Assembly: GCF_053078305.1 (NCBI RefSeq)
Contig: NZ_CP166879.1
DNA: 64,000 bases
Reading direction: 5' to 3' (one strand)
Shown: in pieces, positions 1 through 50,544 of the stretch
Position numbering within the stretch: position 1 is the stretch's first letter
Layout of the letters: each line of letters opens with the position of its first letter
Translations under genes and position numbers: made by a program
Notes under the pieces: model-generated
What the model was told of the DNA's origin: nothing
Seen by the model: the letters and a program-made list of their open reading frames with translations, nothing else
Database searches by the model: none

Positions 1-2
1 CC

Positions 3-2879
3 AATCCTGACACTTATTTCCAGTCTCGCGAAGCCACCAACCCATGGTACAACGCGGTCTATGACCATGTTGAACAGGCGATGAATGATTTCGCTGCCGC
101 GACAGGTCGTCAGTATCAGCCGTTTGAATATTACGGGCATCCGCAAGCGGAACGGGTGATTATCCTGATGGGCTCTGCCATTGGTACCTGTGAAGAAGTG
201 GTTGATGAATTGCTAACCCGTGGCGAAAAAGTTGGCGTGCTGAAAGTTCGTCTGTACCGTCCCTTCTCCGCCAAACACTTGCTGCAAGCTCTGCCGGGAT
301 CCGTACGCAGCGTGGCGGTACTGGACAGAACCAAAGAACCCGGTGCCCAGGCAGAACCGCTCTATCTGGATGTAATGACCGCACTGGCAGAAGCCTTTAA
401 TAATGGCGAGCGCGAAACTCTGCCCCGTGTCATTGGTGGGCGCTATGGTCTTTCATCCAAAGAATTTGGCCCGGACTGTGTACTGGCGGTATTTGCCGAG
501 CTCAACGCGGCTAAACCGAAAGCGCGCTTTACGGTTGGTATTTACGATGATGTGACCAATCTGTCACTGCCGTTGCCGGAAAACACCCTGCCAAACTCGG
601 CGAAACTGGAAGCCTTGTTTTATGGGCTTGGTAGTGATGGCAGCGTTTCCGCGACCAAAAACAATATCAAGATTATCGGTAATTCCACGCCGTGGTACGC
701 ACAGGGCTATTTTGTTTACGACTCCAAAAAGGCGGGCGGCCTGACGGTTTCTCACCTTCGAGTGAGCGAACAGCCGATTCGTTCCGCTTATCTCATTTCC
801 CAGGCTGATTTTGTTGGCTGCCACCAGTTGCAGTTTATCGATAAATATCAGATGGCTGAGCGTTTAAAACCTGGCGGCATTTTCCTGCTCAACACGCCGT
901 ACAGCGCAGATGAAGTGTGGTCGCGCTTGCCGCAGGAAGTTCAGGCCGTGCTAAATCAGAAAAAAGCGCGCTTCTATGTGATTAACGCGGCGAAAATCGC
1001 CCGCGAATGTGGCCTGGCGGCCCGTATTAATACCGTCATGCAGATGGCTTTTTTCCATCTGACGCAAATTCTGCCTGGCGATAGCGCCCTCGCAGAATTG
1101 CAGGGTGCGATTGCCAAAAGTTACAGTAGCAAAGGTCAGGATCTGGTGGAACGCAACTGGCAGGCTCTGGCGCTGGCGCGTGAATCCGTAGAAGAAGTTC
1201 CGTTGCAGCCGGTTAATCCGCACAGCGCCAATCGACCGCCAGTGGTTTCCGATGCCGCCCCTGATTTCGTGAAAACCGTAACCGCGGCGATGCTCGCCGG
1301 GCTTGGTGATGCCCTCCCCGTTTCGGCGCTGCCGCCAGACGGCACCTGGCCGATGGGCACTACACGCTGGGAAAAACGCAATATCGCCGAAGAGATCCCC
1401 ATCTGGAAAGAGGAACTCTGTACCCAATGTAACCACTGTGTTGCCGCTTGCCCACACTCAGCTATTCGCGCAAAAGTGGTACCGCCTGAAGCGATGGAAA
1501 ACGCCCCTGCCAGCCTGCATTCGCTGGATGTGAAATCGCGTGATATGCGCGGGCAGAAATATGTCTTGCAGGTGGCTCCGGAAGATTGCACCGGTTGTAA
1601 CCTGTGCGTCGAAGTTTGCCCGGCGAAAGACCGTCAGAATCCAGAGATTAAAGCCATCAATATGATGTCGCGCCTGGAACATGTCGAAGAAGAGAAAATC
1701 AATTACGATTTCTTCCTCAACCTGCCAGAAATCGACCGTAGCAAACTGGAACGTATTGATATTCGTACATCGCAGCTGATTACACCGCTGTTTGAATATT
1801 CCGGTGCTTGCTCCGGTTGTGGCGAGACGCCGTATATTAAATTGCTGACTCAGCTCTATGGCGACCGGATGTTGATCGCTAACGCCACCGGCTGTTCTTC
1901 AATTTATGGCGGTAACCTGCCCTCTACACCGTATACCACCGATGCCAACGGTCGTGGGCCGGCATGGGCGAACTCTCTATTTGAAGATAATGCCGAATTT
2001 GGCCTTGGTTTCCGCCTGACGGTCGATCAACACCGTGTCCGCGTGCTGCGTCTGCTGGATCAATTTGCCGATAAAATCCCGGCGGAATTACTGACGGCGT
2101 TGAAATCAGACGCTACGCCAGAGGTTCGTCGAGAACAGGTCGCAGCTTTACGCCAGCAACTCAACGATGTTGCCGAAGCACATGAACTGCTGCGTGACGC
2201 AGATGCACTGGTAGAAAAATCAATCTGGCTGATTGGTGGCGACGGCTGGGCTTACGATATCGGCTTTGGCGGTCTGGATCATGTATTGAGTTTGACGGAA
2301 AACGTCAACATTCTGGTGCTGGATACGCAATGCTATTCCAACACCGGTGGTCAGGCGTCGAAAGCGACACCGCTGGGTGCAGTAACTAAATTTGGCGAGC
2401 ACGGCAAACGTAAAGCGCGTAAAGATCTTGGCGTCAGTATGATGATGTACGGTCATGTTTATGTGGCGCAGATTTCTCTCGGCGCGCAACTGAACCAGAC
2501 GGTGAAAGCGATTCAGGAAGCGGAAGCGTATCCGGGACCATCGCTGATCATCGCTTATAGCCCATGTGAAGAGCATGGTTACGATCTGGCACTCAGCCAT
2601 GACCAGATGCGCCAACTCACAGCTACCGGCTTCTGGCCGCTATATCGCTTCGATCCGCGTCGTGCCGATGAAGGCAAACTGCCGCTGGCGCTGGATTCAC
2701 GCCCGCCGTCAGAAGCACTGGAAGAAACGTTACTTCACGAGCAACGTTTCCGTCGTCTGAATTCGCAGCAGCCAGAAGTGGCAGAACAGTTATGGAAAGA
2801 TGCTGCAGCTGATTTGCAAAAACGCTATGACTTCCTGGCACAAATGGCCGGAAAAGCGGAAAAAAGCAACACCGATTAA
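3..2879 (+). CDS. ydbK: Pyruvate:flavodoxin/ferredoxin oxidoreductase, C-terminal ~959 codons; 5-prime end lies upstream of the window
   Basis: Reading frame is open from position 3 with no stop before the first ATG at 81. Two 4Fe-4S ferredoxin motifs (CTQCNHCVAACP, CTGCNLCVEVCP) and a TPP-binding GDGW region are present. Stop at 2879. Confidence 0.9.
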   Translation, partial: NPDTYFQSREATNPWYNAVYDHVEQAMNDFAAATGRQYQPFEYYGHPQAERVIILMGSAIGTCEEVVDELLTRGEKVGVLKVRLYRPFSAKHLLQALPGSVRSVAVLDRTKEPGAQAEPLYLDVMTALAEAFNNGERETLPRVIGGRYGLSSKEFGPDCVLAVFAELNAAKPKARFTVGIYDDVTNLSLPLPENTLPNSAKLEALFYGLGSDGSVSATKNNIKIIGNSTPWYAQGYFVYDSKKAGGLTVSHLRVSEQPIRSAYLISQADFVGCHQLQFIDKYQMAERLKPGGIFLLNTPYSADEVWSRLPQEVQAVLNQKKARFYVINAAKIARECGLAARINTVMQMAFFHLTQILPGDSALAELQGAIAKSYSSKGQDLVERNWQALALARESVEEVPLQPVNPHSANRPPVVSDAAPDFVKTVTAAMLAGLGDALPVSALPPDGTWPMGTTRWEKRNIAEEIPIWKEELCTQCNHCVAACPHSAIRAKVVPPEAMENAPASLHSLDVKSRDMRGQKYVLQVAPEDCTGCNLCVEVCPAKDRQNPEIKAINMMSRLEHVEEEKINYDFFLNLPEIDRSKLERIDIRTSQLITPLFEYSGACSGCGETPYIKLLTQLYGDRMLIANATGCSSIYGGNLPSTPYTTDANGRGPAWANSLFEDNAEFGLGFRLTVDQHRVRVLRLLDQFADKIPAELLTALKSDATPEVRREQVAALRQQLNDVAEAHELLRDADALVEKSIWLIGGDGWAYDIGFGGLDHVLSLTENVNILVLDTQCYSNTGGQASKATPLGAVTKFGEHGKRKARKDLGVSMMMYGHVYVAQISLGAQLNQTVKAIQEAEAYPGPSLIIAYSPCEEHGYDLALSHDQMRQLTATGFWPLYRFDPRRADEGKLPLALDSRPPSEALEETLLHEQRFRRLNSQQPEVAEQLWKDAAADLQKRYDFLAQMAGKAEKSNTD

Positions 2880-2908
2880 ATGCTCTGGATAAGGATTATC
2901 CAATTCTA

Positions 2909-3017
2909 AAAAAAAGCCCGGACGACTGTTCGGGCTTGTCTTTTTATATGTTGGAAAATCAGTGGCAATGCAATGGCCCAACAGAAAATAAAATCTGTGA
3001 CAATAAAGGCATATAAC
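2909..3017 (-). ncRNA. micC: MicC small regulatory RNA, divergent from ompN
   Basis: Minus-strand sequence GTTATATGCCTTTATTGTCACAGATTTTATTTTCTGTTGGGCC... matches the MicC sequence as I recall it. It ends in the hairpin GCCCGAACAGTCGTCCGGGC plus a U-run. Confidence 0.8.
2916..2935. terminator. Bidirectional intrinsic terminator shared by ydbK (plus) and micC (minus)
   Basis: GC-rich inverted repeat gcccg-N10-cgggc flanked by an A-run (2908-2915) and a T-rich run (2938-2944). Confidence 0.7.
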
Positions 3018-3244
3018 CCGCGCAGAATAACGTATAGAAAATTAAAAGTATAATTTTTATTTTGTATGTATTATCTTCGATACATTCACCAGACTTATTA
3101 TCATTTCAGAGGAATTATTTGATTAAGGTTTTACTTAAGGCGTAACAAATGATATTTATCGGCTAACTGAACTTCTCCTTTAGGATGTTTTCACTCCCCG
3201 AAATGGGGATAAAAGGCAAATAAAATAACTAAAGGATTTATTCA

Positions 3245-4378
3245 ATGAAAAGCAAAGTACTGGCACTTTTAATTCCTGCCCTGCTCGCCGCAGGTGCTGC
3301 ACATGCAGCCGAAGTTTATAATAAAGACGGCAACAAATTAGATCTGTATGGCAAAGTTGATGGCCTGCATTATTTTTCTGATAATTCAGCGAAAGATGGC
3401 GACCAGAGCTATGCGCGTCTGGGTTTTAAAGGCGAAACCCAAATTAACGATCAACTTACTGGCTACGGTCAATGGGAATACAATATTCAGGCAAACAACA
3501 CTGAATCTTCAAAAAACCAGTCATGGACCCGTCTGGCATTTGCCGGACTGAAATTTGCAGATTACGGTTCTTTCGATTACGGACGTAATTATGGCGTAAT
3601 GTACGACATCGAAGGCTGGACCGATATGCTGCCTGAATTTGGCGGTGACTCTTATACCAATGCAGACAACTTTATGACTGGTCGAGCCAATGGCGTCGCG
3701 ACTTATCGTAATACTGATTTCTTCGGTCTGGTAAATGGTCTGAACTTCGCGGTGCAGTATCAAGGTAACAACGAAGGAGCCAGTAATGGTCAGGAAGGCA
3801 CCAACAACGGACGTGATGTTCGCCATGAAAACGGTGACGGCTGGGGTCTTTCCACAACATATGATTTAGGCATGGGCTTTAGCGCTGGTGCGGCATACAC
3901 ATCTTCTGACCGCACCAATGACCAGGTTAACCATACTGCGGCGGGTGGTGATAAAGCAGACGCGTGGACTGCTGGGCTAAAATACGATGCTAACAATATT
4001 TACCTGGCAACCATGTATTCAGAAACGCGTAATATGACCCCGTTTGGCGACAGCGATTATGCTGTTGCAAACAAAACCCAGAACTTTGAAGTCACTGCAC
4101 AGTACCAGTTTGATTTTGGTCTGCGTCCGGCAGTCTCTTTCCTGATGTCTAAAGGCCGTGACCTGCACGCTGCCGGTGGTGCAGACAACCCGGCAGGTGT
4201 TGATGATAAAGATCTGGTTAAATACGCCGATGTTGGCGCGACTTACTATTTCAATAAAAACATGTCCACCTATGTTGACTATAAAATCAACCTGTTGGAT
4301 GAAGATGACAGTTTCTACGCTGCCAACGGCATCTCTACCGATGATATTGTCGCTTTAGGTCTGGTTTATCAGTTCTAA
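3245..4378 (+). CDS. ompN: Outer membrane porin N (OmpC/OmpF family), 377 aa
   Basis: Signal peptide [21 protein letters not shown] followed by [16 protein letters not shown], a typical general-porin N-terminus, and a C-terminal aromatic residue. Length matches the K-12 protein. Confidence 0.9.
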
Positions 4379-4386
4379 ATCCTCCT

Positions 4387-4411
4387 GCCCGCTGTTATGG
4401 CGGGCTTTTTC
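4387..4411 (+). terminator. Intrinsic terminator after ompN
   Basis: Hairpin gcccgc-tgttatg-gcgggc followed by ttttt. Confidence 0.7.
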
Positions 4412-4437
4412 TGCTTATTCTTCCTCCTTTGATCTAA

Positions 4438-4953
<516 letters not shown>

Positions 4954-4960
4954 CACTAAC

Positions 4961-4985
4961 GCCCGCACATTGCTGCGGGCTTTTT
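4961..4985 (+). terminator. Intrinsic terminator after uspF
   Basis: Hairpin gcccgca...tgcgggc followed by ttttt. Confidence 0.6.
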
Positions 4986-5128
4986 GATTCATTTCGCAAA
5001 TGTGCTGACATTTTCCCCTCTAATCCGTACCATACACGCCACAGTTTTTATATCAGATTTCTTATGCTGGGCGTTCCGGCATGACGCATACTCTTCTGAT
5101 GCCATATAACGAATTGAGTCGCTTTTAA

Positions 5129-6064
5129 ATGTCGCAAAATCAAGAAATTAGCAAGAAAGAACAATACAACCTGAACAAATTACAAAAACGTCTGCGTCGT
5201 AACGTGGGCGAAGCCATTGCTGACTTCAATATGATTGAAGAAGGCGATCGCATCATGGTTTGCCTCTCCGGGGGTAAAGACAGCTATACCATGCTGGAGA
5301 TTCTGCGCAATTTGCAGCAAAGCGCGCCAATCAATTTTTCGCTGGTGGCTGTTAACCTCGATCAAAAGCAACCGGGCTTCCCGGAACACGTTCTGCCCGA
5401 GTATCTTGAAAAGCTGGGCGTTGAGTACAAGATTGTTGAAGAGAACACTTACGGTATCGTGAAAGAGAAGATTCCAGAGGGCAAAACCACTTGCTCACTG
5501 TGTTCTCGGCTACGTCGCGGTATCCTTTATCGCACCGCAACGGAACTGGGGGCGACGAAGATCGCGTTGGGCCACCATCGTGACGATATCCTGCAAACGT
5601 TGTTCTTAAATATGTTCTACGGCGGCAAGATGAAAGGTATGCCTCCGAAACTGATGAGCGATGATGGCAAACATATCGTTATTCGTCCGCTGGCCTACTG
5701 CCGCGAGAAAGATATTCAGCGATTTGCCGATGCAAAAGCGTTCCCGATTATTCCGTGCAACCTGTGCGGTTCACAGCCTAACCTGCAACGTCAGGTGATT
5801 GCTGACATGTTGCGTGACTGGGATAAACGTTATCCAGGGCGTATCGAGACGATGTTCAGCGCGATGCAGAATGTGGTGCCGTCGCATCTGTGCGATACCA
5901 ACCTGTTCGATTTCAAAGGCATCACCCACGGTTCTGAAGTGGTTAACGGGGGTGATCTGGCGTTTGATCGCGAAGAGATCCCACTACAACCGGCGGGCTG
6001 GCAGCCAGAAGAAGATGAAAATCAGTTGGATGAGTTACGGCTGAATGTGGTTGAAGTGAAATAA
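5129..6064 (+). CDS. ttcA: tRNA 2-thiocytidine biosynthesis protein TtcA, 311 aa, uninterrupted
   Basis: PP-loop motif CLSGGKDS and conserved Cys pairs. Full length equals the K-12 protein. Confidence 0.9.
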
Positions 6065-19955: not shown

Positions 19956-20987
19956 ATGATCGCTGAACTGTTTACAAATAATGCGCTTAATCTGGTCATT
20001 ATTTTCGGTAGCTGCGCAGCATTGATTCTGATGAGCTTTTGGTTTCGCCGCGGAAATCGTAAAAGAAAAGGCTTTTTATTCCATGCGGTGCAATTTTTAA
20101 TCTACACCATAATTATCAGTGCTGTTGGTAGCATTATTAATTATGTTATAGAAAACTATAAACTCAAATTTATCACCCCAGGCGTTATCGATTTTATCTG
20201 TACGTCCCTGATTGCGGTTATTCTGACGATTAAGCTATTTTTGCTGATTAATCAGTTTGAAAAACAGCAGATTAAAAAAGGTCGCGATATCACCAGTGCG
20301 CGGATTATGTCGCGCATTATCAAAATCACCATTATTGTGGTGCTTGTTCTGCTTTATGGCGAACATTTCGGCATGAGCCTTTCTGGCTTGCTGACCTTTG
20401 GTGGTATTGGTGGTCTGGCTGTCGGTATGGCCGGTAAAGATATTCTGAGTAATTTCTTTTCCGGGATCATGCTCTATTTCGACCGTCCTTTCAGTATTGG
20501 CGACTGGATCCGTTCACCGGACAGAAATATCGAAGGTACAGTAGCGGAAATTGGCTGGCGAATTACCAAAATTACGACCTTTGATAATCGTCCATTGTAC
20601 GTACCGAACTCGCTGTTTTCGTCGATCAGCGTAGAAAACCCAGGACGAATGACCAACCGCCGCATTACCACGACCATTGGTTTACGTTATGAGGATGCGG
20701 CAAAAGTGGGCGTTATTGTCGAAGCCGTACGTGAGATGCTGAAAAATCACCCGGCCATCGACCAGCGACAAACCTTACTGGTTTATTTCAACCAGTTTGC
20801 TGACTCGTCATTGAATATTATGGTTTATTGCTTTACCAAAACCACGGTATGGGCTGAGTGGCTTGCTGCACAGCAAGACGTTTATTTGAAGATTATCGAT
20901 ATTGTACAGTCACACGGCGCGGACTTTGCCTTCCCCAGCCAGACGCTGTATATGGATAACATTACACCGTCGGAACAGGGTCGCTAA
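19956..20987 (+). CDS. ynaI: MscS-family mechanosensitive channel YnaI, 343 aa
   Basis: N-terminal transmembrane helices followed by an MscS beta domain. GGAGG Shine-Dalgarno upstream. Confidence 0.85.
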
Positions 20988-21037
20988 ATCAGACATCACT
21001 GGCGTTATCCGCAAGGGTAACGCCAGTTCCCATCACA

Positions 21038-22651
21038 TCAATGCTTCACAATATACATAGTCCGACTGTACGCCACATCTTCAGGGTTATTAATGGGATA
21101 ACCTTTCAGCCACGGTTTGATTAATCGTCCATTGGTATATTGATAAATTGGTGCAATCGGTGCTTGCTCCATGAGGATTTTTTCTGCCGCGTTGTAATCG
21201 GCATTACGCGCTTTAACGGTATTTTCCGTCGATGCCTGGACCAGAACTTTGTCGTATGCCGGATTGTAAAAGCGTGAAATATTTCCTGAATGCGTTGACG
21301 TTAATAATGTCAGGAAAGTGGAGGGTTCATTATAATCCCCCACCCATGAGGCGCGGATAACATCAAAATTGCCGGTGTTACGGCTATCGATATAGGTTTT
21401 CCATTCCTGATTTTGCAATTTAACATCTACGCCAAGGTTCTTTTTCCACATCGATGCTACAGCAATCGCAATTTTTTGATGGTTTTCTGAAGTGTTATAC
21501 AAAAGCGTCAGCTTCAGCGGTTTTTGCGGACCATAACCAGCTGCGCTCAACAAAGTTTTTGCCTGCGCATTCAGTTCTTCCTGACTCATTTGTTCAAACG
21601 GCGAAGGTTCCGGCGTAAATCCGGCGGTAACATCTGGTGTAAAATGCCACGCTGGCTTTTCGCCCGTCCCTAATACTTTTTCGGTCATCAGGCGGCGATC
21701 TATCGTCATACTTAATGCCAGACGAACGCGCTGATCTGCCGTCGGCCCTTTTTGCGTGTTAAACGCATAATAATAGGTCCCGAGCTGCGGCGGCGTATAA
21801 ACCTGCCCCGGAATATCCTTCAACAGCTTCTGATACATATTTTTCGGGAAGGATTCGGTGATATCAATATCCCCCGCGAGGTAACGCTTAGTGGCTGCGG
21901 ATTCCTGATTAATTGGCAGGAAGGTCACTTTTTGCAGTACCGTTTTGGCGTTATCCCAATAATGGGTATTCGGTACCACGACCAGTTTTTCATTGACTAC
22001 GCGCTCTTTAAGAACATAAGCGCCATTGCCGATCAGATTTCCGGGTTTCGTCCACTCTTTACCGCTTTCTACGTTGGCTTTTTGCACCGGGAAGAAGGCA
22101 AAGTTAGCGGTTAAATTCACAAACCACGGCAACGGTTTATCAAGCTGAATTTTCAAAGTATGGGCATCAACTGCGGTGACGCCAAGCTGGTCAGGCGTAG
22201 CTTTACCATCAATAATCGCCTGTGCGTTGTTGATTCCCGCCAGCGCGGCAAACCATGCAAATGGCGATAGCGTTTTCGGGTCCACCAGACGCTGCCAGCT
22301 GTAGACAAAATCTTGCGCCGTTACCGGTGTGCCATCCGCCCATTTTGCGTTATCGCGCAGGGTAAAAGTCCAGATACGGTTGTCATTACTTTTCCACTGA
22401 GTCGCAACGCCGGGGACAATCTCCCCTTTCTCGTTCTGATTCACCAGTCCTTCAAACAGATCGCGAATGACCTGAATCTCTGGCAGGCCCACGGCTTTAG
22501 CGGGATCCAGCGACGCAGGCTCATCTTTAATGTGGCGCACCAGCTCCTGCTTCTCTGCCAGTACTGTGCCGCTCGGAACTTCTGCAGCATACGAAAGAGA
22601 AATGCTGCTGACCAACAGCGCACAACACGTGACTGAAACAGAGTGCTTCAT
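21038..22651 (-). CDS. mppA: Periplasmic murein tripeptide-binding protein MppA (SBP family 5), 537 aa
   Basis: Signal peptide MKHSVSVTCCALLVSSISLSYA and an OppA-like fold. Start at MKHSV preceded by GAGGGAAA. Confidence 0.85.
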   Translation of the reverse strand: MKHSVSVTCCALLVSSISLSYAAEVPSGTVLAEKQELVRHIKDEPASLDPAKAVGLPEIQVIRDLFEGLVNQNEKGEIVPGVATQWKSNDNRIWTFTLRDNAKWADGTPVTAQDFVYSWQRLVDPKTLSPFAWFAALAGINNAQAIIDGKATPDQLGVTAVDAHTLKIQLDKPLPWFVNLTANFAFFPVQKANVESGKEWTKPGNLIGNGAYVLKERVVNEKLVVVPNTHYWDNAKTVLQKVTFLPINQESAATKRYLAGDIDITESFPKNMYQKLLKDIPGQVYTPPQLGTYYYAFNTQKGPTADQRVRLALSMTIDRRLMTEKVLGTGEKPAWHFTPDVTAGFTPEPSPFEQMSQEELNAQAKTLLSAAGYGPQKPLKLTLLYNTSENHQKIAIAVASMWKKNLGVDVKLQNQEWKTYIDSRNTGNFDVIRASWVGDYNEPSTFLTLLTSTHSGNISRFYNPAYDKVLVQASTENTVKARNADYNAAEKILMEQAPIAPIYQYTNGRLIKPWLKGYPINNPEDVAYSRTMYIVKH

Positions 22652-22987
22652 AAGTTTCCCTCTAACCGACATTAAAATTGATGCGTAATTATTTGTTTCG
22701 CCTTAAAGAAATGCAAACAACTTCCATCAAAAAAGTGACACAGGAAGCATAAAATGTTTTATGTATCAATATATTAAATCAGATTTAGTGTAAATAATAG
22801 ACGCCAAAATGCGGCAAAGCACATAGAACACCGAACACTACGTTCGGGCTTCGCACGTTCAAACCAGTTTTCGGTATCATAATCAGCATCTGTCGCCATT
22901 GTACGAAGAATAAAAAATAACCAAAACGTTGAAAGGAACTGAGAATACGTTAAGAGAAGAATTAAATTAATGTATCAGCAAGTAGTG

Positions 22988-23887
22988 CTAAACAGCACCT
23001 TTATACTTCAGCCTATCTATAAATAATGAGAATGCCGAGCCAGCATGTCGACGGTGTGGATAGTACAGGTGATAACCGGGTAAATCTGGTGTGAATTTAT
23101 CCAAAACACGTATCAGTTTTTTTTCTTTAATAGCCCGCTCAACCTGATCATAAGGTAGATACGCCAATCCATGCCCATCAATTGCAGCATCAATGATCAG
23201 GTCTATCGTATTCAGTAAAAGCTGACCTTCCATGCGAACACGAACTTCACGTCCACCGCGTATTAATCTCCAGCGATTTGCTGTACCCGATGTGGGAAGA
23301 TACAAATTAACTGCCTGATGATCTATTAATTGTGACACTGACGTTGGAACACTTCGGCGGGAAAAATAATCCGGTGAGCCAACAATAGCCATTGGTATAT
23401 CTGGCCCGATTCGAATGGCGATCATATCTTTATCCATCTCCCCACCCAGACGGACGCCTGCATCAAAACGCTCAGAAACGACATCAGTCAAACCATAATC
23501 AATGATAAGCTGAATATCAATTTCAGGGTGTGATTTCAGGAATGTGCGCATGGCTGGTAACAATATCGTTTTTGCTGCATGTTCTACAGTAGTAATACGT
23601 ATTGTCCCGGATGGGCGGTTCTGCAGATCGCTCAGGGATGCCAGGGCAGAATCTATGTCATGCAGCATAGGGCCAAGAACAGACAAAAGATGCTCGCCCG
23701 CTTCAGTAGGTACAACACTGCGCGTGGTTCGCGTCAGAAGCCGCAATCCCAATCGTTCTTCTATACGGCGCACTATCTGGCTTAATGCTGACTGCGCCAT
23801 GCTCAGGCGGGCTGCTGCGCGAGTGAAGCTACGCTCCTCTGCAACGACGACAAACGCCATCAGATCAGCGATCTCTTCACGCTTCAT
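22988..23887 (-). CDS. pgrR: LysR-family regulator PgrR (YcjZ), 299 aa
   Basis: LysR HTH (FTRAAARLSMAQSALSQIVRRIE). Divergent from ycjY. Confidence 0.85.
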   Translation of the reverse strand: MKREEIADLMAFVVVAEERSFTRAAARLSMAQSALSQIVRRIEERLGLRLLTRTTRSVVPTEAGEHLLSVLGPMLHDIDSALASLSDLQNRPSGTIRITTVEHAAKTILLPAMRTFLKSHPEIDIQLIIDYGLTDVVSERFDAGVRLGGEMDKDMIAIRIGPDIPMAIVGSPDYFSRRSVPTSVSQLIDHQAVNLYLPTSGTANRWRLIRGGREVRVRMEGQLLLNTIDLIIDAAIDGHGLAYLPYDQVERAIKEKKLIRVLDKFTPDLPGYHLYYPHRRHAGSAFSLFIDRLKYKGAV

Positions 23888-23912
23888 TTAGTATCTCCAT
23901 ACAATCTATTAA

Positions 23913-23926
23913 TCATTTAAATGATA
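23913..23926. promoter_or_regulatory. Perfect 14-bp palindrome ATCATTTAAATGAT in the pgrR/ycjY divergent promoter region; candidate operator
   Basis: The sequence is its own reverse complement. It is followed by two direct repeats of GGTCTAATCA at 23928-23937 and 23946-23955. Confidence 0.3.
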
Positions 23927-24024
23927 GGTCTAATCATGATTTTGGGTCTAATCAACTTAATGATCAATATCTATAGTGATATAACCAACCGTTAAAACGA
24001 ACCAACAACTCCATGAGGAACGGA

Positions 24025-24945
24025 ATGATGAATAATAAAGTCAGCTTCACTAACAGCAATAATCCAACCATCTCTTTGTCTGCAGTGATCTATTTTCCTC
24101 CAAAATTTGATGAAACCCGTCAATATCCGGCAATTGTGGTATCTCACCCAGGTGGGGGCGTTAAAGAACAAACGGCCGGAACTTATGCCGAAAAACTGGC
24201 GGAAAAGGGATTTGTCACTATTGCTTATGACGCATCTTATCAAGGTGAAAGTGGCGGCGAGCCGCGTCAGTTAGAAAACCCATACATTCGTACTGAAGAC
24301 ATCAGTGCCGTGATTGATTACCTGACAACGCTTTCTTATGTCGACAATACCCGAATTGGTGCGATGGGAATTTGTGCCGGTGCAGGATATACAGCCAATG
24401 CTGCAATTCAGGATCGCCGCATCAAGGCCATCGGTACCGTTAGTGCGGTCAATATTGGTTCGATGTTCCGTAATGGTTGGGAAAACAATGTGAAATCTAT
24501 TGATGCCCTGCCATACGTTGAAGCGGGTTCAAACGCCAGAACCAGCGATATTAGCAGCGGAGAATACGCCATTATGCCACTGGCACCAATGAAGGAGTCC
24601 GATGCGCCGAACGAAGAACTGCGTCAGGCCTGGGAGTATTACCACACCCCTCGCGCGCAGTATCCAACAGCACCGGGTTACGCTACTTTGCGCAGCCTTA
24701 ACCAGATTATTACCTATGATGCTTACCATATGGCGGAAGTGTACCTGACTCAGCCGACGCAGATTGTGGCGGGCAGCCAGGCAGGGAGCAAATGGATGAG
24801 TGACGACCTGTACGATCGGGCATCAAGCCAGGATAAACGCTATCACATTGTTGAAGGCGCAAACCATATGGATCTTTATGACGGCAAAGCCTATGTGGCT
24901 GAAGCAATTTCAGTATTAGCTCCGTTCTTTGAGGAAACTCTGTAA
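24025..24945 (+). CDS. ycjY: Alpha/beta hydrolase, dienelactone-hydrolase-like with a Cys nucleophile elbow, 306 aa
   Basis: G-x-C-x-G nucleophile motif (GICAGAG). Start at MMNNK with GAGGA upstream. The stop overlaps the next gene start. Confidence 0.8.
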   Translation: MMNNKVSFTNSNNPTISLSAVIYFPPKFDETRQYPAIVVSHPGGGVKEQTAGTYAEKLAEKGFVTIAYDASYQGESGGEPRQLENPYIRTEDISAVIDYLTTLSYVDNTRIGAMGICAGAGYTANAAIQDRRIKAIGTVSAVNIGSMFRNGWENNVKSIDALPYVEAGSNARTSDISSGEYAIMPLAPMKESDAPNEELRQAWEYYHTPRAQYPTAPGYATLRSLNQIITYDAYHMAEVYLTQPTQIVAGSQAGSKWMSDDLYDRASSQDKRYHIVEGANHMDLYDGKAYVAEAISVLAPFFEETL

Positions 24946-25874
24946 TGAAACATATTCAAATCCGCAATAGTGATATGGCCTGGCATATTGCTGCCAATAT
25001 TCAGTTTCCACCAAATTTTGATGAGTCAAAACAGTATCCGGCGATTATCAGCGTCCATCCTTTTGGCAGTTGTAAGGAGCAGACGTCTGGCAATATCTAT
25101 GGCAAGGCATTGGCTGAAAAAGGCTATGTCGTTCTCGCTTATGACGCCAGTTTCCAGGGAGAATCTGGTGGGGAGCCTCGTTGGATAGAAGATCCGACAC
25201 AGCGCGTAGAGGATATTAGCCGTGTTATCGATTATGCAGTAACTCTGCCATATGTTGATGCTGAACGCATTGGCGTGCTGGGTGTGTGTGGGGGGGGTGG
25301 CTATGCCATTAATGCCGCGCTGACAGAAAAACGAATTAAAGCTGTAGTGAGTATTACGGGTGTTAATATCGGGCGTCTTTTTCGGGAAGGTTTCAGCAAT
25401 TACGATCCGATTGGCGCATTGAATGCAATGGCGTCGCAACGAACCAAAGAGGCTCGTGGTGGAGAATTACAGATCAACGAATTACTTCCCGCCAGCCTGG
25501 ATGCAGCAAAAGCCCATGGACTGACCGAACGCGATGTTTATGAAGCAACTGACTACTATAAAACACCACGCGGGCAACAACCGGGAGGTGCGACAAAAAT
25601 GTTGTTCTCACATGCACAGAAAACGCTGGCCTGGGATGCCTTCGCATTTACTGAAGTGTTACTGACTCAGCCGGTGATGGTAGTAGTTGGTGAAAAAGTC
25701 GGTGCCTTCGGTGCTTATCGTGATGGACTGGAAGTCTATGGCCGGGCGATGGTTTCGCAGGATCGTCAGTTAGTTTCATTACCCGATTTCTCACATTATG
25801 AACTGTATGACAAACCGGAAGCAGTTCAGGAGGCGCTGGAAAAAGTTATTCCTTTTTTCAACACCCATCTGTGA
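24945..25874 (+). CDS. Second, tandem alpha/beta hydrolase paralogous to ycjY, 309 aa, intact
   Basis: Alignable with YcjY over its whole length (shared blocks AYDASxQGESGGEPR, EDISxVIDY, RIKA). Nucleophile motif GVCGGGG. Translationally coupled via TAATG. May correspond to the locus annotated as a remnant (ymjD) in K-12, from memory. Confidence 0.75.
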   Translation: MKHIQIRNSDMAWHIAANIQFPPNFDESKQYPAIISVHPFGSCKEQTSGNIYGKALAEKGYVVLAYDASFQGESGGEPRWIEDPTQRVEDISRVIDYAVTLPYVDAERIGVLGVCGGGGYAINAALTEKRIKAVVSITGVNIGRLFREGFSNYDPIGALNAMASQRTKEARGGELQINELLPASLDAAKAHGLTERDVYEATDYYKTPRGQQPGGATKMLFSHAQKTLAWDAFAFTEVLLTQPVMVVVGEKVGAFGAYRDGLEVYGRAMVSQDRQLVSLPDFSHYELYDKPEAVQEALEKVIPFFNTHL

Positions 25875-25894
25875 TAAGTTTCATGAGAAATATT

Positions 25895-26532
25895 ATGAAA
25901 AATGTACTCATTCTTGGTGCTGGCGGTCAGATAGCCCGCCATGTGATTAATCAACTGGCAGATAAACAAACCATTAAACAAACTTTATTTGCTCGTCAGC
26001 CAGCAAAAATACACAAACCCTATCCAACTAATAGCCAGATTATTATGGGGGATGTACTGAATCATGCAGCACTGAAGCAGGCCATGCAGGGACAGGATAT
26101 TGTGTATGCCAACCTTACGGGGGAAGATTTAGATATTCAGGCAAATTCAGTGATCGCTGCGATGAAAGCCTGTGATGTTAAACGTCTGATCTTTGTTCTT
26201 TCCCTCGGCATTTATGATGAAGTTCCAGGAAAATTTGGCGAATGGAATAATGCAGTTATTGGTGAGCCCCTAAACCATTCCGCAGGGCTGCGGATGCAAT
26301 TGAGGCTTCTGGACTGGAATATACAATTCTTCGCCCTGCCTGGCTGACGGATGAAGATATTATTGATTATGAGCTTACCTCACGCAATGAACCATTCAAA
26401 GGTACGATCGTATCACGTAAGAGTGTCGCAGCATTAATTACAGATATCATCGATAAACCTGAGAAACACATTGGTGAGAATATAGGCATCAATCAACCCG
26501 GGACTGATGGCGACAAGCCATTCTTCATGTAA
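25895..26532 (+). pseudogene. ymjC: NAD(P)-binding NmrA/SDR-like protein interrupted by a frameshift (ymjC-like)
   Basis: Rossmann motif ILGAGGQIARH. The frame runs to a stop at 26347, but a different frame continues as ...KPFRRAADAIEASGLEYTILRPAWLTDEDIIDYELT... to 26532. The shift maps to about 26265-26276 (gagcccctaaacc). Start codon uncertain (25883 or 25895). Confidence 0.55.
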
Positions 26533-26822
26533 ATCAATTATATAGCCACCATCGTACTGTACTATGTGCAGTACGATTTATTAAACTTATTAAGGTGAAC
26601 TGATCAATCAGATGCGATTAACATGTGTAGAACCAGTAAGAATAAAATACGCCATGTATATAACATTACGACAATTCTAATATCTGCACATCAATAAAAA
26701 TACAAACAACTTCCGGCAAAAAAGTGATACAAGATCGATGACATAGCGTTGAAGAAAAGGATTTGATAATCCGCAAAATTTGCACAACACTGCCTGTAAT
26801 ACTTCCTGAACCAGAGACGATC

Positions 26823-27525
26823 ATGACCGTAACCCGCCCACGCGCCGAACGCGGCGCATTTCCGCCCGGAACAGAACATTACGGACGTTCATTATTGGGC
26901 GCGCCGTTAATCTGGTTTCCGGCCCCTGCAGCCAGTCGCGAAAGTGGTTTGATTCTGGCTGGCACTCACGGTGATGAAAACTCTTCGGTCGTCACGCTCT
27001 CCTGTGCTCTGCGGACTTTGACACCTTCTTTGCGCCGCCATCATGTGGTGCTGTGTGTGAATCCTGACGGCTGCCAGCTGGGGTTACGGGCCAATGCTAA
27101 TGGTGTGGATTTAAACAGAAACTTTCCGGCGGCAAACTGGAAGGAAGGTGAAACGGTTTATCGCTGGAACAGCGCCGCTGAAGAACGTGATGTCGTATTA
27201 CTGACTGGTGACAAACCTGGCTCCGAACCTGAAACCCAGGCGCTGTGCCAGCTTATACACCGCATTCAACCTGCCTGGGTGGTCTCATTCCACGATCCAC
27301 TGGCCTGTATTGAAGATCCCAGACACAGCGAATTAGGCGAATGGCTGGCTCAGGCGTTTGAATTGCCTCTGGTAACCAGCGTCGGTTATGAAACGCCTGG
27401 CTCTTTCGGCAGTTGGTGTGCAGATCTGAACTTGCATTGCATCACCGCAGAGTTTCCGCCCATCTCCTCCGACGAAGCCAGCGAAAAATATCTCTTTGCG
27501 ATGGCAAACTTGCTGCGCTGGCATC

Positions 27526-27551
<26 letters not shown>
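26823..27551 (+). CDS. mpaA: Murein peptide amidase A (gamma-D-Glu-DAP amidase, M14-like), 242 aa
   Basis: Zinc-binding HxxE motif (GTHGDENSS). Start at MTVTRPRAERG. Confidence 0.85.
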
Positions 27552-28501
<950 letters not shown>

Positions 28502-28609
28502 TGTTGTCGCGGTGGTCTGCGGATTAAGCGCAAATAGCGTTTGCTGTGTTATTGACAGTTAGCATAAACTAGGTGTGACGTTAACTATATGTAAACAGGA
28601 AAGATAATC

Positions 28610-29116
28610 ATGTCACAAACCGTTCATTTCCAGGGCAACCCGGTTACAGTCGCCAACTCCATCCCGCAGGCGGGTAGCAAAGCGCAGACTTTTACTCTCG
28701 TGGCAAAAGATCTGTCTGACGTCACCCTCGGTCAGTTTGCGGGTAAACGCAAAGTGCTGAACATTTTCCCGAGTATTGATACCGGTGTTTGCGCCGCATC
28801 AGTACGTAAGTTTAACCAACTGGCAACTGAGATCGACAACACCGTTGTGCTGTGTATCTCTGCCGATCTGCCGTTCGCCCAGTCTCGTTTCTGCGGCGCA
28901 GAAGGTCTGAACAACGTTATCACCCTCTCCACTTTCCGTAACGCTGAATTTCTGCAAGCCTACGGTGTGGCAATTGCTGATGGCCCACTGAAAGGTCTGG
29001 CAGCGCGTGCCGTTGTGGTTATTGATGAAAATGACAATGTGATTTTCAGCCAGCTGGTGGATGAAATCACCACCGAGCCGGATTACGAAGCAGCTCTGGC
29101 TGTACTGAAAGCATAA
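28610..29116 (+). CDS. tpx: Thiol peroxidase (atypical 2-Cys peroxiredoxin), 168 aa
   Basis: Peroxidatic Cys in [10 protein letters not shown] and resolving Cys in [10 protein letters not shown]. Confidence 0.9.
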
Positions 29117-29120
29117 GTTA

Positions 29121-29153
29121 ATATGCCTGATGGTGTTGCACCATCAGGCATAT
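29121..29153. terminator. Bidirectional terminator between convergent tpx and tyrR
   Basis: Perfect 15-bp inverted repeat atatgcctgatggtg-ttg-caccatcaggcatat, AT-rich on both flanks. Confidence 0.7.
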
Positions 29154-29159
29154 TCGCGC

Positions 29160-30701
29160 TTACTCTTCGTTCTTCTTCTGACTCAGACCATATTCCCGCA
29201 ACTTATTGGCAATCGCGGTATGTGAAACGCCGAGACGTTTTGCCAGTTTGCGCGTGCTGGGATAATTGCGATAAAGCTGAGTTAATACCGAGCGTTCAAA
29301 ACGGCTGGTAATTTCGTCCAGCGAACCTTCCATCGCATCTTCGCCCACGGCTACCGTTGCGGCGTCATAATCCGGCAACAAAATATCCTGTGGACGCAGC
29401 TCATAACCGTCCAGTTGTGTCAGTGCGCGATAGATAGCGTTCTTTAACTGCCGCACATTTCCCGGCCACGCATAACGCGTAAGTACAGTATTCAGGTCAG
29501 CGGCCAGTTTCGGACGCGGCACGCCCTGCTCGTCGGCAAAGCGGGCGACGAACAGCTCAGTTAACGGCATGATGTCCTGCGGACAGTCACGTAGCGGTGG
29601 CAGATTGAGCGTCAACACGTTCAGACGATAATAGAGATCTTCACGGAACATGCCTTTTTGCACCAGTTCGACCAGATTCTTCTGCGTAGCGCAAATCACC
29701 CGCACATCGACATGCACCTCATGGTCTTCGCCAACCCGACGGAAAGTGCCATCATTAAGAAAACGCAGTAATTTCGCCTGCATCCGTGGTGACATCTCAC
29801 CTATTTCATCCAACAGCACCGAACCACCGTTCGCCTGCTCAAAGAATCCTTTCTTCCCTTCCGGAGCATGACCAAACAGCTCACTCTCGACCGCATCTTC
29901 CGGTATAGACGCACAGTTCAGCGCCAGGTAAGGTTTGCTCGCTCTTGGGCTTGCCTGATGGCAGGCGTAGGCAAAGAGATCTTTACCTGTACCTGTGTCA
30001 CCCGTAATCAGCAGCGGCGCGCTTAGCATCGCCAGTTTCTGCGCCTGTTCGACAACATGCTTCATTTTCGGGCTGACAGCGACAATTTGACTGAAGGCGC
30101 TGACGTCCTGGGCGGCGACATTTTGCAACTGGCGGCCCATACGAATCGTTGATCGCAACATCACCACCGCACCTGTCAGGACGTGTTGATCATTTTCATC
30201 CTGAAGATAAACAGGCGTAATCTCCATCAGGAAGTTCTGTCCATTAATAACAACATGCTCGTTATGCGAATCTTGCGGTTCGCTTTCCAGCCAACGTAAA
30301 AAATTAAAGCCGTTAATCAATTGTGCGGCGGTATGGTTGCGCAGGCGATCCAATTTTTGCCCAAAAAGCTGACAGCTCGCTGGGTTCGCCATATCCACTT
30401 TGCTTTTCATATCGACAGAGAGCACAGGTTCGGGCAACGCCTCCAGTAACGCGCTCAACGCCAGATGCTCACGTTCGGAAGGCATCCACGGGACAGTACG
30501 CACATCGGTAACACCTGCAATACGGCGTATTTCGGCCATCAGACTGCTGAAACTCTCAAACTCCAGTTCAGCAAAATTGAGGTAGATTCGCCCAATGGGG
30601 TCAATTTCAATACCGCGTAAATCAATGCCTCTTAGCACGAGTAGATCGAGTAATTCGCGGGTCAGACCGAGTCGGTCTTCACAAAAGACTTCCAGACGCA
30701 T
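29160..30701 (-). CDS. tyrR: Transcriptional regulator TyrR (AAA+ domain with C-terminal HTH), 513 aa
   Basis: Walker A GDTGTGKD with no GAFTGA motif, and a C-terminal HTH. Start at MRLEVFCEDRLGL. Confidence 0.9.
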   Translation of the reverse strand: MRLEVFCEDRLGLTRELLDLLVLRGIDLRGIEIDPIGRIYLNFAELEFESFSSLMAEIRRIAGVTDVRTVPWMPSEREHLALSALLEALPEPVLSVDMKSKVDMANPASCQLFGQKLDRLRNHTAAQLINGFNFLRWLESEPQDSHNEHVVINGQNFLMEITPVYLQDENDQHVLTGAVVMLRSTIRMGRQLQNVAAQDVSAFSQIVAVSPKMKHVVEQAQKLAMLSAPLLITGDTGTGKDLFAYACHQASPRASKPYLALNCASIPEDAVESELFGHAPEGKKGFFEQANGGSVLLDEIGEMSPRMQAKLLRFLNDGTFRRVGEDHEVHVDVRVICATQKNLVELVQKGMFREDLYYRLNVLTLNLPPLRDCPQDIMPLTELFVARFADEQGVPRPKLAADLNTVLTRYAWPGNVRQLKNAIYRALTQLDGYELRPQDILLPDYDAATVAVGEDAMEGSLDEITSRFERSVLTQLYRNYPSTRKLAKRLGVSHTAIANKLREYGLSQKKNEE

Positions 30702-30771
30702 GGGAACCTTCACCTGAAAAAAGAACAATTAATATGATGATATGACACTATTTGGATAGCAGGAAGGTTTC

Positions 30772-30789
30772 TGTCAACAATCATTGACA
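30772..30789. promoter_or_regulatory. TyrR-box-like palindrome upstream of tyrR
   Basis: TGTCAA-N6-TTGACA resembles the TyrR box consensus TGTAAA-N6-TTTACA and lies about 70-90 bp upstream of the tyrR start. Confidence 0.3.
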
Positions 30790-30848
30790 CAAAGACGGAA
30801 AAACGGGCACTTCGGCGTAAAGATATCCGGTCAGCACCCGATATTGCA

Positions 30849-31910
30849 TTATTTTTCGCTGGGCGTTTTGCCTTTTTGCAGCGTTTCTTTCACCTGACCG
30901 ATAAGCTGACGACGGAAATCCCCGAGGCGAGGTTTGTCATCGTCAATCCACGGCAGCGGGCGGCAAAGCTCCATAGCTTTAATCCCGAGTCGTGCCGTCA
31001 GAAGCCCAGCACCAATCCCCTGAGCTGCGCGGGTAGACAAACGAGCAGCGAGATCTTGCGACATCCAGTCCATCCCCACTTCGCGCACCAATTCGCTGGC
31101 TCCGGCGAAAGCGATATTCAGCAATACCAGCTTGAACAGGCGCAAACGGCTGTAATATCCCAGTTCAATGCCATACAGCGTGGCGATGCGATTAATCAAA
31201 CGCAGATTGCGCCAGGCGATAAATGCCATATCCACCAGCGCCAGCGGGCTGACCGCAATCATCAACGTTGATTCCGCTGCCGAACGGCTGATTTCGCGCC
31301 GCGCCTGGGCATCTAAAACTGGCTGGACCAAATGCGCATACAAACTGACCACTTCACGGTCGTTTTGCGTTTCATGGATTGAGGCATACCAGCGTTGCAG
31401 CGCCGGATGTGACTGATCGATGCCCGCCTGCTGCGCCAGTTTTTCGCAAAATGCGCGGCCTTTGCCGGTTCCGTGGCTATGCAATAAATCACGCGCTTCG
31501 TCGCGTTCATGGGCGCGCTGTCGCAAGCGCCATAAGCGCCGCCACTCTGTTACCACAGAACCTACGCCAGCGCCGATAATCAATGCCCCAGCGGCACATC
31601 CACCCAGCGCCACCCAGTCCTGAGTTTGCCAGGCATTCATTGTCCACTGTATACCCTGCCCGACAACGCTTGCGCCAAACAGAGCCAGCCCGCCCATCAC
31701 CATTTTGCGCCACAGGCTGCGTTTCGGACGTAACGCTGCGTCCATTACCGCTTCGACTTGCCCCTCTTCTTCCTGCGCTTCGTCGAGCGTGGCCGGGGCA
31801 AAATTTTGCGCCTGATTTTCGTCAAAGGTCTGCTGCGCCCTGAATTTAGGATTCTGATCGACCTCCAGAGGACCGTCGAAATCAATACGTGGTTTTAACG
31901 GTTCGGTCAT
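30849..31910 (-). CDS. ycjF: Inner-membrane protein YcjF (DUF697/UPF0283), 353 aa
   Basis: Central transmembrane segments. Start overlaps the ycjX stop (ATGA). Confidence 0.85.
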
Positions 31911-50527: not shown

Positions 50528-50544
50528 ATTATTGCGTTGGGCTA

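Follow-up and report, generated by a model that had tools for sequence, protein, structure and literature searches.

The window analysed here, by which we mean the whole stretch of 64,000 nucleotides from contig NZ_CP166879.1 (assembly GCF_053078305.1), contains an oxidoreductase gene whose coding sequence begins in one reading frame and continues in another. The question raised by this locus is whether the interruption lies in the DNA of the organism or was introduced by sequencing, and what the interrupted gene can still make. The preliminary description left the choice between a pseudogene and a homopolymer sequencing error undecided; the finding of the same deletion in two other assemblies, from different isolates, settles the matter in favor of a real mutation. 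We are confident that the locus carries a genuine, recent, and lineage-specific loss-of-function mutation, in which one A has been lost from an A4 run at codons 126-127 of a 212-codon oxidoreductase gene. The gene and its parts are as follows:

25895..26532, + strand: whole frameshifted gene (PF13460 NAD(P)H-binding / atypical SDR), 638 nt against 639 nt in the intact form, delimited by the alignment with PS10-3
25895..26347, + strand: truncated ORF in frame A, obtained by translation, with GAGGQIA at residues 8-14
26272..26274, + strand: lesion, AAA (AAAA in intact alleles), located by alignments with KV7, UTI89, and PS10-3, all of which have A4
26272..26532, + strand: C-terminal part of the coding sequence, left stranded in the -1 frame, obtained by translation, matching PF13460 positions 125-184

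Frame A starts at ATG 25895, where the sequence reads MKNVLILGAGGQIARH, with GTG at 25871 as an alternative start upstream, and it ends with the TGA at 26345-26347; this translation agrees with the earlier statement that the frame opening with the Rossmann motif ends at 26347. The product is 150 aa in length and consists of 126 native residues followed by 24 aberrant residues (NHSAGLRMQLRLLDWNIQFFALPG) and then the stop. Frame B, which is the -1 frame, is open from 26266, directly past a TGA at 26263-26265, reads APKPFRRAADAIEASGLEYTILRPAWLTDED..., and stops at 26530-26532, so that the second frame does continue the gene to 26532 as had been described. It codes for residues K127-M212 of the intact protein (86 residues). 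The alignment to intact orthologs that had been proposed as a check identifies the exact indel as one A of an A4 run: over 25880-26560, the window and intact E. coli PS10-3 differ in one of 682 columns, this being the missing A, with the gap at column 393. The intact allele reads CCCCTAAAACC and the window reads CCCCTAAACC, meaning that A4 has become A3, and the alignment puts the lost A in the AAA at 26272-26274, within the interval 26270-26275 that had been singled out inside the wider region 26255-26285. The run spans codons 126-127, and the missing A shifts the frame from codon 127 on. When one A is inserted at the run, the translation is exactly 212 aa long (a protein of about this length had been predicted from one added nucleotide) and identical to the PS10-3 product WP_000800184.1. 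No ATG, GTG, or TTG occurs in the -1 frame between 26266 and 26526, the sole later Met being the final codon at 26527, and none of the listed + strand ORFs (30 aa or longer) ends at 26532. Because no possible start codon precedes that final Met codon, the downstream 86 codons are predicted to be incapable of separate translation. The frame is disrupted relative to intact orthologs, and both parts are homologous to one continuous protein, as is expected of a frameshift pseudogene.

Profile searches place the gene in a family. The repaired protein matches PF13460 across the entire profile (positions 1-184 of 184) at 183.8 bits, compared to a cut-off of 27.2. When the two pieces in the window are searched, the E-value is 2.6e-30 for the N-terminal one, at profile positions 1-121, and 6e-18 for the C-terminal one, at positions 125-184; the latter match disposes of the possibility, raised in the preliminary description, that the second-frame segment might lack similarity to the family. 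Because the two pieces match adjacent stretches of the same profile, both halves can be assigned, far beyond chance, to one PF13460 domain that is split at profile positions 121/125. As a refinement of the label "NmrA-like NAD(P)-binding", the best family is PF13460, and the NmrA profile PF05368 covers only the N-terminal 100 residues (41.1 bits, cut-off 27, profile positions 3-104 of 298), which is to say the Rossmann N-terminus alone. None of the NCBIfam models comes near its cut-off for this protein. The glycine-rich dinucleotide-binding motif (GxxGxxG/A) is present as GAGGQIA at residues 8-14, and the catalytic YxxxK motif of classical SDR enzymes is absent throughout the repaired 212-aa sequence. 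Since the former is present and the latter absent, the gene product is classified by its motifs as an atypical SDR, and the RefSeq name "SDR family oxidoreductase" is valid in this atypical sense only.

Structural relatives of the repaired protein have been deposited. PDB entry 3QVO, called an "NmrA family protein" by its depositors, is a single 212-aa chain in which 211 of 212 residues are identical to the repaired protein, and the single 221-aa chains of 4IPT and 3R6D align with it end to end (residues 2-211). The intact "SDR family oxidoreductase" WP_000800184.1 of the Enterobacteriaceae equals the repaired gene product, but the allele in the window is one A short and cannot make it. More distant relatives (E = 1e-5 to 1e-6) are the PF13460-type atypical SDRs ChuY/ShuY (5GUY, 5FFQ) and biliverdin IX-beta reductase / flavin reductase (1HDO). 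As here, these proteins have about 205-215 aa and one Rossmann-type domain, although their similarity to the window protein is low and implies no common substrate.

The frameshifted gene lies in a cluster in which pgrR on the - strand is followed on the + strand by ycjY, a second alpha/beta hydrolase gene, the SDR gene, and mpaA, and then by ycjG, tpx, and tyrR. The regulon of PgrR includes the ycjY-ymjDC-mpaA operon (PMC5934670). In the list below, genes called in the locus from SRR30292771, which is compared with the window further on, were transferred to window coordinates with an offset of 20894.

22988..23887, - strand: pgrR, divergent LysR-type regulator, from position and annotation
24025..24945, + strand: ycjY, alpha/beta hydrolase of 306 aa, intact, called in the SRR30292771 locus
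24945..25874, + strand: second alpha/beta hydrolase, 309 aa, intact, called in the SRR30292771 locus and present as a 309-aa ORF
26551..26577, + strand: terminator-like hairpin with a 12-bp stem and a 3-nt loop, then UUUAUU, from direct folding
26823..27551, + strand: mpaA, murein tripeptide amidase of 242 aa, intact, from ORF and annotation

The hairpin at 26551-26577 begins 19 nt past the natural stop of the SDR gene and has a folding energy of -16.2 kcal/mol (z = -5.3), with none of 200 shuffled sequences being as stable. It was missed by a consensus terminator scan and found by direct folding, and its form suggests that it likely acts as an intrinsic terminator separating the SDR gene from mpaA. 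Given so strong a hairpin behind the natural stop, the premature stop is unlikely to add much polar effect on mpaA. On the other side of the cluster, PS10-3 and KV7 have in RefSeq a 75-nt internal fragment, annotated as an epoxyqueuosine reductase QueH pseudogene, between mppA and pgrR (window ~22650-22990).

How this locus fares in other E. coli was determined by using megablast with window positions 25700-26800 as query against 5,426 complete RefSeq E. coli genomes. The locus is found in 5,405 of these, and the best match, PS10-3, has 99.8% identity and is one base longer. The frameshift site itself is missing from 2,481 of the 5,405 genomes having the locus (~46%), K-12 included. At the same place, K-12 has in RefSeq a 138-nt pseudogene described as "NAD-dependent dehydratase, missing C-terminus", which is ymjC, with 46 codons. 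The name ymjC given in the preliminary description is therefore correct in that it denotes the same gene, but strictly it belongs to this N-terminal remnant in K-12. The remnants of ymjC (with ymjD) in K-12 occupy the same position between ycjY and mpaA and are likewise inactivated, the ymjC remnant aligning to window 25889-26033. K-12 (ER2796), however, has undergone two large deletions, corresponding to window 25000-25888 (the second hydrolase) and 26034-26692 (most of the SDR gene together with the hairpin), whereas the window retains the full architecture and has a 1-bp deletion only. Because of this difference, the inactivations in K-12 and in the window are read from the alignments as independent events. 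Genomes of the UTI89 type lack only the second hydrolase and have an intact SDR gene. The ycjY-mpaA interval (window 24945-26692) thus exists in at least four states, these being the full arrangement, the UTI89 type, the K-12-type double deletion (roughly 46%), and the 1-bp frameshift of the window. A pan-genome study found ymjC to be variably present across E. coli phylogroups (PMC9602453), and the gene has been described as a putative oxidoreductase (PMC9602453, PMC8355897).

The SDR gene is an accessory part of the ycjY-...-mpaA cluster controlled by PgrR, and it is dispensable, given that in roughly half of E. coli genomes it has been lost by other routes. Its loss in the window was probably selectively neutral. 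That there are several independent inactivations might instead mean that loss was selected in some niches, for example because the activity is costly beside the murein-peptide recycling genes mpaA and ycjG, an idea that we consider improbable. It is less likely still that leaky -1 slippage on A_AAC keeps up a trickle of full-length enzyme carrying K127N.

If the lesion were a sequencing or assembly error, the source genome would truly have A4, the gene would be intact, and the missing base would be a base-calling artefact in a homopolymer. The lesion does sit in a run of one nucleotide, and the deletion is not shared by any of the complete RefSeq E. coli genomes: an 81-bp probe centred on the lesion matched 2,924 of these genomes, and among the 2,924 having the site the deletion is seen in none, no match reaching 99% and the best being 98.8%, which equals one gap. 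A run of just 3-4 bases, however, is an atypical setting for homopolymer error. Moreover, at least 24 contigs between 50 kb and 1 Mb in length, drawn from NCBI assemblies and from Logan assemblies of SRA runs, code for precisely this 150-aa truncated protein. They could stem from a few closely related isolates, which leaves wide limits on how old and how widespread the allele may be; a second table gives 16 contigs with the 150-aa product against more than 1,000 with the intact protein. Two of the carrier loci were fetched for comparison. The first (SRR30292771) agrees with window 20895-31347, some 10.4 kb, at 99.99% identity with 1 mismatch, and the second (GCA_018683035.1) with window 22583-31347, about 8.8 kb, at 99.97% identity with 3 mismatches. 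Both have CCCCTAAACC and not the intact form, giving three distinct sequences with the same allele. The same deletion therefore occurs in assemblies that are 1 and 3 SNPs from the window, and the upstream structure of the latter differs as well, which speaks against an artefact. Upstream of pgrR, the GCA_018683035.1 locus has an integrase gene where the window and the SRR30292771 locus have mppA; its positions 1-1689, to the left of window ~22583, hold small ORFs along with the gene for this 406-aa integrase of phage type (PF00589), so that the isolate may have acquired an integrated element or undergone a rearrangement.

The remainder of the window likewise argues against error. It is collinear with KV7 for 45.8 kb, with 563 substitutions and 4 gaps, and the lesion is the only indel in coding sequence. 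The three other gaps (11 bases in total) are clustered at 50540-50543, in the pspF-puuE intergenic region. Because two independent assemblies share the allele and no other coding indel is present in 45.8 kb, we reject sequencing error, to which we would assign only a very small probability, and the deletion is taken, on the strength of these independent assemblies, to be real and part of the DNA of the organism. Since none of the 2,924 complete genomes with the site carries the deletion, the A3 allele is, as far as these genomes indicate, rare and lineage-specific.

A real deletion need not abolish function, and the 150-aa product could conceivably still work, for example as an NAD(P)-binding mini-protein, making this a shortened gene and not a pseudogene. 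The N-terminal 126 residues do retain the dinucleotide-binding motif and match PF13460 positions 1-121, and gene callers predict the protein. On the other hand, the product has lost one third of its only, compact domain and carries 24 unrelated residues instead, the homologs of known structure align over their full length, and the named relatives include no natural short form of such length, the short entries among them being contig-end partials. We therefore regard a functional short product as very unlikely.

Expression of the full-length protein might also be rescued by recoding, in that a -1 slip of tRNA-Asn from AAC (26273-26275) to AAA (26272-26274) would yield some full-length K127N protein and leave the gene partly functional. 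The direction of the slip is the required one, A_AAC permits two-of-three re-pairing, and a 5-6 bp hairpin (CCGCAG/CUGCGG) begins 4 nt downstream. The slippery heptamer X_XXY_YYZ is absent, however; the zero frame reads CCC CUA AAC, the P-site CUA cannot re-pair on CCU, and only the A-site codon could do so. In addition, the downstream fold is unremarkable (z = -1.05, with 29 of 200 shuffled sequences folding as well) and is present in all intact alleles too, where it simply codes for FRRAAD. The arrangement occurs in 0 of 2,924 other genomes and is thus derived and not conserved. Partial rescue by such slippage is barely credible, and a programmed -1 ribosomal frameshift is rejected outright given the missing heptamer, the unexceptional hairpin, and the unconserved arrangement. 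A naturally split gene, which the preliminary description had named as one finding that would overturn its reading, is ruled out by the orthologs in PS10-3, KV7, and UTI89, each of which is one CDS of 639 nt, by the single chain of the homolog 3QVO, and by a downstream piece that has no start codon.

We therefore return to the loss-of-function mutation, for which a simple course of events can be proposed. Replication slippage on the A4 run is the most likely route by which one A was lost. The ribosome would then read 126 native and 24 wrong residues before stopping at 26347, and the remaining 86 codons, having no start codon, would go untranslated. The product would lack profile positions ~122-184, the final third of its sole Rossmann-type PF13460 domain, and is presumed to be inactive or unstable, because 86 of the 212 residues of a single-domain protein are gone. 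The alleles of PS10-3, KV7, and UTI89 all have A4, and on that account A4 is ancestral and A3 derived. Besides the missing A, the window differs from the PS10-3 allele at 0 nucleotides, from that of KV7 at 2 nt, and from that of UTI89 at 13 nt. Because the gene shows no other change, the pseudogene is judged from these comparisons to be young, further damage having not yet accumulated. Gene decay of the Shigella type is an unlikely setting, because no insertion interrupts the 45.8 kb in which the window is collinear with E. coli KV7.

Beyond the locus, the window as a whole is distant from the sampled genomes. Positions 14000-38000 reach at most 99.1% identity, and positions 40000-64000 at most 98.3%, to any of the 5,426 complete RefSeq E. 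coli genomes. The region of the SDR gene, unlike this distant remainder, is the PS10-3 allele apart from the deletion, and the combination suggests that the lineage is under-sampled and that recombination has given it a mosaic history. The stretch collinear with KV7 has its boundary at window 5136, a short way upstream of ttcA (ORF 5129-6064). Beyond that point KV7 has the Rac-like prophage genes recE, recT, ralR, xisR, and intR, and window 1-5136 instead has ORFs at 81-2879, 3245-4378, and 4447-4953; the window thus appears to be without the Rac-like prophage of KV7. When the genomes that represent species in GTDB were scanned with a pattern covering both alleles (GGTGAGCCCCTAAAN{0,1}CCATTCCGCAGGGC), no match resulted, so that the scan is uninformative as to other species.

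In sum, a known accessory gene has here become a pseudogene through an ordinary frameshift; the mechanism involved is not new, and the case has no bearing on open questions. For annotation, the locus should be flagged as a frameshifted pseudogene of a ymjC-family SDR and not as two ORFs or as a 150-aa protein. The A3 allele, for which CCCCTAAACCATTCC serves as a search sequence, is usable as a marker of a rare E. coli lineage. Finally, the mutation adds one more case of recurrent accessory-gene decay beside the genes of peptidoglycan recycling.
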